Assembly (NCBI GenBank): GCA_023229865.1
Contig: JALNYL010000003.1
Location: 22,109 to 86,108, forward strand
DNA: 64,000 bases
Direction: 5' to 3'
Source: Minisyncoccota bacterium
GTDB lineage: Bacteria; Patescibacteriota; Minisyncoccia; Phycocordibacterales; UBA1550
The notes beneath the pieces were generated by a model, which saw only the letters and a program-made list of their open reading frames with translations, was not told where the DNA came from and made no database searches. The translations under genes were made by a program, and so were the position numbers. Shown here one piece after another: positions 32,864-33,301 of this stretch (the stretch's first letter is position 1; the number at the start of each line of letters is the position of its first letter).

Positions 32864-33301
32864 TTAGGAATTCTTTTTGAGGGATCCGTTAAGAATAATG
32901 AGGGTAGAAATTATTGCATACAGAAATGTCAAAAATATACCAACCAAATCTTTTGATATTGCAAAAAATGCATCTCCCTCATACCAAGGAGTAATTATTA
33001 CAATAAATAAATAAATAAATAAATAAATAAAGGTAAATTTTTGCCAAAAAACAAACATAGATTGTTTCTTAAAGAAAAGCATTAGCACAGAGAACAGCGC
33101 AACTCCGAAGGCAATAAAACTAATGACGGTTGCAAAATGACATGTAGTTACCCAATATGCAAACCTCTCGTCTTGCCCGATATTTAAACACAGCCCCGAG
33201 TCAGTTTTTATTAAATATCTCGAAAAAGGATAGAGGGAAGCGAAAATTATACTAATAAGAAACATTTTCCCTTGCGTAAACCAATTCAGTATTTTTTGCA
33301 T
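32864..33301 (-). CDS. small polytopic membrane protein, paralog P2 (contains in-frame (AATA)7 tract)
   Basis: 145 aa, 4 TM; paralogous to 33657-34095; near-leaderless start after TAAAAT. Confidence 0.6.
   Translation of the reverse strand: MQKILNWFTQGKMFLISIIFASLYPFSRYLIKTDSGLCLNIGQDERFAYWVTTCHFATVISFIAFGVALFSVLMLFFKKQSMFVFWQKFTFIYLFIYLFIVIITPWYEGDAFFAISKDLVGIFLTFLYAIISTLIILNGSLKKNS
33003..33030. repeat. tetranucleotide microsatellite (AATA)7 inside the P2 coding sequence
   Basis: 28-nt perfect tandem repeat encoding FIYLFIYLFI. Confidence 0.95.

Follow-up and report, generated by a model that had tools for sequence, protein, structure and literature searches.

We find that a tetranucleotide repeat, (AATA)7.5, located within the gene for a small membrane protein (P2), is best explained as a hypermutable coding microsatellite, and as a fixed feature of one Paceibacteria family of small four-helix membrane proteins. 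We also lean, if only a little, towards the further proposal that the tract would serve as a reversible on/off contingency switch for a membrane partner of large surface proteins; a proposal suggested by the occurrence, in related loci, of out-of-frame (‘OFF’) alleles without secondary damage, by the purity of the tract in all such alleles together with the in-frame (‘ON’) state of every interrupted one, and by a purity of the repeat DNA that is confined to the tract itself. The features needed first are listed below, in the coordinates of the window (the whole 64 kb stretch of DNA that was analysed).

33002..33031, within a minus-strand gene: the (AATA)7.5 tract (Tandem Repeats Finder: period 4, 100% matches).
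32864..33301, minus strand: P2, a 145-aa small four-helix membrane protein, ON (from its ORF, homologues and AlphaFold model).
33657..34095, minus strand: P1, a paralogue of P2 with no tetranucleotide tract, frameshifted near its 5′ end (by sequence comparison).

Read on the coding (minus) strand, the tract is (TTTA)7TT and supplies codons 91–100 of P2 (TTT ATT TAT TTA TTT ATT TAT TTA TTT ATT), which translate as FIYLFIYLFI; its first codon, the 91st of 145, lies 62% of the way along the ORF. A previous, sequence-only reading of this DNA had placed the repeat at 33003–33030, the same tract to within one base, and had described it as lying in frame within a transmembrane segment of P2; both the codons and a helix predicted at residues 80–103 agree with this description. 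The same reading took the sequenced state to be ON and expected the gain or loss of a single unit to shift the frame. The full 145-aa ORF is indeed open, and our simulated alleles behave as anticipated: with 6 units P2 is truncated to 99 aa and with 8 units to 108 aa, both products lacking the conserved PWYxGD loop and helix 4, while 4, 7 or 10 units keep the frame.

P2 is a real gene. A protein identical to it (100%; annotated at NCBI as a hypothetical protein) is present in a Candidatus Pacebacteria MAG, and a further homologue, 79% identical, is found in a Candidatus Paceibacterota MAG (locus L001). A family profile searched against 1.84 billion cluster representatives returns 573 members at E<=1e-3 and 116 at E<=1e-10, the majority of them 130–145 aa in length, and those with a named source belong to Paceibacterota, Moranbacteria or Parcubacteria. 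No model in Pfam or NCBIfam matches P2 or the 99-aa fragment ORF described below, Pfam likewise holds none for P1, and a Foldseek search of the P2 model against the PDB gives no match with E below 1. The AlphaFold model itself, built with 88 family sequences (pLDDT 92.5), contains helices at residues 10–32, 53–76, 80–103 and 117–141, plus a Cys-containing hairpin (residues 40–52) predicted to be extracytoplasmic and a loop (residues 104–116) that bears the conserved PWYxGD motif. Given the position of the third of these helices, the tract (residues 91–100) would encode the C-terminal half of helix 3. A scan for promoters and terminators returned motif counts no different from shuffle expectation.

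With 7.5 uninterrupted units the tract passes the cut-off of at least five units set for tetranucleotide repeats (PMC6321876). Only one other repeat of 1–6-base units spanning at least 12 nt is present in the 64 kb window, a (CGG)4, and dinucleotide-preserving shuffles gave no match to the 20-nt core of the tract, with 2 mismatches permitted. Looking beyond the window, all 13 of the tetranucleotide repeats of at least 4 units found in 125 kb of family loci are located at this homologous site.

We recovered DNA for fifteen distinct homologous loci, ten of them ON and five OFF.

ON, perfect tract (at least 28 nt), six loci: window P2, L001a, L003, L005, L008b, L010.
ON, interrupted tract, four loci: L002, L009, L013, L037.
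OFF, perfect tract, five loci: L012, L034, L035, L001b, L001c.

The out-of-frame tracts themselves are as follows.

L012: 26-nt tract, one unit short; JGI metagenomes, from a variable-gap DNA scan.
L034: 22-nt tract, two units short; traced from a truncated profile-search representative.
L035/L036: 26-nt tract; traced from a truncated profile-search representative, ENA and JGI assemblies.
L001, 11382..11795: paralogue with (ATTT)6, tract of 24–25 nt, split exactly at the tract.
L001, 12742..13160: paralogue with an 18-nt tract, split exactly at the tract.

The sequence-only reading had proposed that alleles of other unit number be looked for in related assemblies, and out-of-frame alleles of this kind do exist, although they belong to relatives of this organism rather than to the same strain. 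In all five OFF loci the sole lesion is a whole-unit change in the tract. In L012, for example, the N-terminal ORF ends just past the tract and the C-terminal part of the protein (IIIVTPWYSGDAFLYISKG...) is intact in a shifted frame, and L035/L036 retains ~80% DNA identity to L005/L008, an ON locus of these same ENA and JGI datasets. All OFF tracts are uninterrupted, and all four loci with an interrupted tract remain in frame. The coding part beyond the shift gives dN/dS values of 0.12 (L035 compared with L005) and 0.19 (L012 compared with L009); until recently, therefore, purifying selection was acting on this part of each gene.

The sampling behind these counts is small, and some OFF loci were fetched since their proteins looked truncated; three of the five were nevertheless obtained in a manner unbiased as to length, one by a gap-tolerant scan of DNA and two incidentally, in sequence flanking L001. 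The gap-tolerant scan of metagenomes gave 18 matches, 14 of them by chance, and that of genome contigs re-found the L001 contig, its other four matches being by chance. Exact-protein look-ups with P2, P1 and P0001 brought up no further assembly of the source organism, and a cluster look-up for near-identical alleles of differing tract length met with clusters of one or two members only. With these limits of sample and scope, we consider it well supported that the tract is a genuine and recurrent frameshift hotspot, acting through whole-unit slippage.

Might the shortened tracts instead be errors of sequencing or assembly, made on a tract that is in truth invariant? The related sequences all come from short-read metagenome assemblies, and three further family proteins (P0055, P0071 and P0106) end at or within the tract, which may reflect contig breaks or additional OFF alleles. 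We regard such an artefact as very improbable, however, as the pattern recurs in five separate cases that differ in project and assembler; as L035 and L036, taken from two assemblies, are identical over 1094 nt; and as the flanks align with those of homologues, the tract alone being shorter or longer, falling short of the canonical 30 nt by exactly 4, 4 and 8 nt in L012, L035 and L034. Moreover, indels of 4 nt in a tract of 28 nt are not among the consensus errors usual for Illumina assemblies. Harder still to credit is a recoding of the OFF alleles, in which full-length protein would still be made because the ribosome changes frame, or transcription slips, on the U-rich repeat. Here, the one supporting observation is that their downstream frames are intact and constrained; against this, the alleles would require differing corrections, of +1, +2 or −1 units, and transcriptional slippage is known from homopolymers and is not known from tetranucleotide units. 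Even when taken together, artefact and recoding make for a highly unlikely explanation.

Turning to the peptide that the tract encodes, our first search identified 7 homologues with 32–79% identity to P2, all 7 of which contain the IYLFIYLFI core and 5 of which retain KFTFIYLFIYLFI in full; this search requires shared 5-residue words and so is biased toward members that bear the peptide. The profile search, which is free of that bias, reveals many relatives in which the helix is non-repetitive (e.g. FVFFILYFII or IIYIYIYIGI), and a second word-index search, in which 8000 candidates were scored, added few further tract-bearing members. Y93, Y97 and I100 show no variation in the alignment, even in P1, where the stretch that corresponds to the tract reads NYIYVYIAIL and is, as previously remarked, non-repetitive. 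At some loci the peptide has been kept as the DNA repeat decays synonymously: the tract is broken by TTA>CTA in L002, by TTA>CTA plus ATT>ATC in L009 and by TTA>TTG in L037, in each case leaving the peptide unchanged, with most loci being purer than either codon usage or the conserved codons on each side would lead one to expect. In L013 the tract is degenerate and partly substituted, the peptide reading LTYLLIYLFV. In none of 235 family proteins is the in-register FIYL run longer than 10 residues, and in-frame length variants amount to three diverged examples (+4 aa in P0066 and P0107; −4 aa in P0138). From these comparisons, the ON length is essentially fixed, at 7.5 units or 10 residues, and selection acts on the encoded peptide itself, as part of a transmembrane helix.

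This conservation of the peptide lends weight to an account without any switch, in which the repeat is a by-product: a conserved helix peptide, written in the codons preferred by an AT-rich gene (TTT, ATT, TAT and TTA), simply happens to spell it. The tract would on this view be a mutational liability that cannot be avoided, and the OFF copies would be redundant paralogues or orphan cassettes in the course of turning into pseudogenes. The retention of the peptide in three to four lineages in spite of synonymous interruptions, the fixed ON length, the persistence of both tyrosines in non-repetitive P1 and the AT-richness of the family genes (GC 0.24–0.33) are all in keeping with this account; as are the location of the L001 OFF copies behind partial C-terminal gene copies, the breakage of P1 in the window at a different place (an A7 run, see below) and the substitution in L034 of the nearly invariant W106 by R. 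We think it tenable, although on balance disfavoured, for reasons that become apparent when the DNA of the tract is compared with that around it.

Codon choice was compared, for eight in-frame loci, between the tract and the same amino acids elsewhere in the genes. Inside the tract phenylalanine is encoded by TTT in 20 of 20 instances (78% outside), tyrosine by TAT in 16 of 16 (78% outside) and leucine by TTA in 14 of 18 (31% outside; Fisher p=2e-4). Pairwise codon identity at identical residues reaches 90% within the tract, as against 52% elsewhere, and the latter figure holds when only F, I, Y and L are considered; three repaired OFF genes formed part of the set compared. The boundary is sharp: among the ten ON loci, per-position codon identity is 0.62–1.0 at tract codons 0–8, and falls to 0.22–0.48 at the flanking F and T (upstream) and I, I, T and P (downstream), even though these flanking residues are equally conserved as amino acids. 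Such a drop at the tract borders is difficult to reconcile with the by-product account, and so is the frequency of the perfect repeat, as codon bias (the product of outside-tract codon frequencies) predicts a perfect 28-nt tract in ~1% of the genes that encode this peptide, compared with the 6 of 10 ON loci in which it is observed. The OFF alleles also argue against it, given that the tract is their only lesion and that downstream dN/dS is low in the two that are measurable. Finally, were the repeat a pure liability, we would expect it to have been erased synonymously in most lineages, as has happened in some.

Two other origins for the shared tract were considered and rejected. Block gene conversion or horizontal transfer would not leave an identity that collapses at the very codons bordering the tract, and simple relatedness does not fit with synonymous sites that elsewhere are about half-randomised, nor with dS values that exceed 1 in several gene parts (0.47–1.37); the halting of nucleotide identity at the borders speaks against shared ancestry as well as against transfer and conversion. 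On the basis of these codon comparisons, the DNA of the tract is conserved to a degree that neither the peptide nor codon bias nor relatedness accounts for. Two constraints bear on the same 30 bases: one at the level of protein, on the sequence and length of the helix, and one at the level of DNA, on a purity that is confined to the tract. Purity of this kind would be expected from cycles of loss and regain or from selection for mutability.

We therefore return to the switch, for which the following series of events can be proposed. Slipped-strand mispairing during replication would change the number of TTTA units; the gain or loss of whole units would lead to out-of-frame translation and to a product of 99–108 aa without the PWYxGD loop and helix 4; and lineages would cycle between OFF and ON as a lost unit is later regained. 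Such a cycle would also purge interrupted units and so keep the repeat pure. The tract might in this way act as a reversible switch of low to moderate rate, with paralogues of one cassette array possibly sitting in different states.

The sequence-only reading had put the tract forward as a candidate contingency locus of the classic type. The mechanics, the OFF alleles of related loci and the conservation at the DNA level all speak for that candidacy; the mid-gene position of the tract, its fixed ON length and the structural nature of the peptide speak against it, and with only seven units in addition, this is not a textbook contingency locus. A tract close to the 5′ end and the existence of many ON lengths, hallmarks that are typical although not obligatory, are both absent here, and the polymorphism of length between ON and OFF is seen among homologues and paralogues of related organisms rather than among strains of one species. 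Seven units may also be too few for rapid switching, as loci near the published cut-offs may mutate at rates below 1e-5 (PMC6321876). The OFF copies, several of which sit in redundant cassette arrays, could alternatively be paralogues that have recently decayed.

A comparison with the tetranucleotide loci of Haemophilus influenzae (lic1/licA with CAAT, mod with AGTC) is instructive in both directions. As in those loci, a perfect tract lies within the ORF, slippage by whole units shifts the frame so that the product is cut short, genomes differ in whether the allele is ON or OFF, and paralogous gene sets may each bear a tract. The H. influenzae tracts, however, are mostly beside the start codon, vary widely in their ON unit numbers and are thought to encode flexible peptide (PMC2651432), whereas that of P2 is short (7 units), is 62% into the gene and part of a transmembrane helix, and has essentially one ON length, conserved down to about 32% identity. 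With the phasomes of Campylobacter and Neisseria, as catalogued by PhasomeIt, the locus shares a tract of at least five tetranucleotide units, an in-ORF position and homologues in different frames (PMC6321876). It differs in that those genomes carry tens of loci, mostly poly-G/C, whereas our 64 kb window holds a single tetranucleotide tract, the only other sign of slippage being the frameshift at the P1 A7 run; and in that the host of P2 is an uncultivated environmental bacterium of the Candidate Phyla Radiation (CPR).

The surroundings of P2 give some indication of what would be switched, and require further features of the window to be introduced.

34061..34067, minus strand: A7 run in P1, the site of frame loss (by comparison with the L001 homologue).
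33345..33644, minus strand: 99-aa ORF, a copy of the last 84 residues of the large protein (81% aa identity).
34140..39116, minus strand: 1658-aa large surface protein with parallel beta-helix/NosD-like, M6-metalloprotease-like and OmpL47/HYR-like domains.

P1 shares 34% identity with P2 across the 73 C-terminal residues. The true start codon of P1 is the ATG at 34095, from which it reads MQKILNWFTQK, almost as does the start of P2, before the frame changes, a shift that the sequence-only reading had not remarked; at the position of the A7 run, L001a (the 79% homologue of P2) has an A9 that is in frame (CAA AAA AAA ACA). Judged from sequence, then, P1 is either OFF or a pseudogene in the window, and P2 is ON. 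A database protein of 106 aa, P0011, is identical to P1 over its C-terminal 70 residues and looks like an N-terminally truncated call of the P1 gene.

The 1658-aa protein begins with an apparent signal peptide, as read from the sequence; two hydrophobic helices can also be seen mid-chain, at residues ~955–1020. Over its last ~460 aa it shares 71% identity with the C-terminus of a 1422-aa LCAT-domain protein, the product of the gene (5679..9947) that precedes the P2 homologue at L001. The possession of a common C-terminus by large proteins with differing enzyme parts (beta-helix/M6-protease-like in one, LCAT lipase-like in the other) suggests domain shuffling on a shared stalk or anchor. Other P genes lie 20–50 nt behind genes for large LCAT-domain proteins and, at most of the loci examined, the family gene directly follows one for a large surface or secreted protein.

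At both loci this pairing is repeated as an array. That of the window (33345..34480) runs from the large gene to P1, then to the 84-aa C-terminal copy and finally to P2, the duplicated block continuing past the intergenic spacer to take in the opening codons of the P gene; seven consecutive G residues on the coding (minus) strand (a G7 run, 33600..33606) are seen at the upstream border of the fragment ORF (…EETGGQPL…). In the L001 array (10446..13160 for the copies), the 1422-aa gene and its P gene are followed by two 302-aa ORFs, 56–73% identical copies of the C-terminal region, each then followed by a P paralogue. From this organisation, the family gene has the appearance of encoding a partner for modular surface proteins, and is carried within arrays of C-terminal cassette plus partner.

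Arrays of orphan C-terminal fragments and small genes are a feature of polymorphic toxin systems, such as CdiA-CT/CdiI and Rhs-CT/immunity, and the layout found here resembles their orphan modules, or alternatively silent recombination cassettes, by analogy: a full large gene and a small gene are succeeded by partial 3′ copies, each with a small paralogue. Unlike the unrelated toxin domains of those systems, however, the C-terminal copies are mutual homologues (56–81% identity), and the small proteins all belong to one family of integral membrane proteins. The C-terminal copies contain no recognised toxin domain; the arrangement is that of an orphan-cassette array, and diverse toxin C-termini are not present.

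A more ambitious version of the switch would make it a family-wide and anciently conserved device of the CPR, in which selection for switchability keeps (TTTA)7 pure within a structural helix; we think this rather unlikely. If true, independently ON and OFF paralogues in arrays would generate combinatorial variation of the cell surface in host-dependent ultra-small bacteria, the proteins being partners of modular surface enzymes of the beta-helix/protease and LCAT lipase types.

The mechanism in itself, slipped-strand frameshifting at a coding repeat, is already known. What is new is the setting in an uncultivated CPR bacterium, the conservation of the tract across a family, its single ON length and its location in a transmembrane helix. 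To our knowledge, phase variation by simple sequence repeats is known almost only from host-adapted pathogens, and in the literature that we searched no paper mentions phase variation, simple-sequence or otherwise, in the Candidate Phyla Radiation. Should the tract switch, it would offer a testable handle on membrane and surface variation in uncultivated episymbiotic bacteria. The locus is also an unusually clean case of protein and DNA constraints acting on the same bases, and as such it is relevant to a long-standing question, namely whether repeats prone to mutation are kept because of that very property.

Elsewhere in the window there are two more distant members of the family.

52995..53450, minus strand: distant family member with no tract (E about 2e-6 to the family profile).
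54899..55321, minus strand: distant family member with no tract (E about 2e-6 to the family profile).

Both are among four tandem small membrane-protein ORFs of 151, 144, 265 and 140 aa (52995..55321, minus strand), all of which share the same start, MCNGGI(I/M)LGMKK; their common beginning suggests a leader sequence repeated before each of the four genes. With respect to base composition, the P genes of the window (32800..34400) have a GC content of 0.33–0.39 and the gene for the large protein is intermediate, at 0.35–0.48, compared with about 0.47–0.53 for MraY, FtsW, MurG and GltX; figures consistent with the AT-rich P region being an accessory or acquired segment beside a cell-wall gene cluster.
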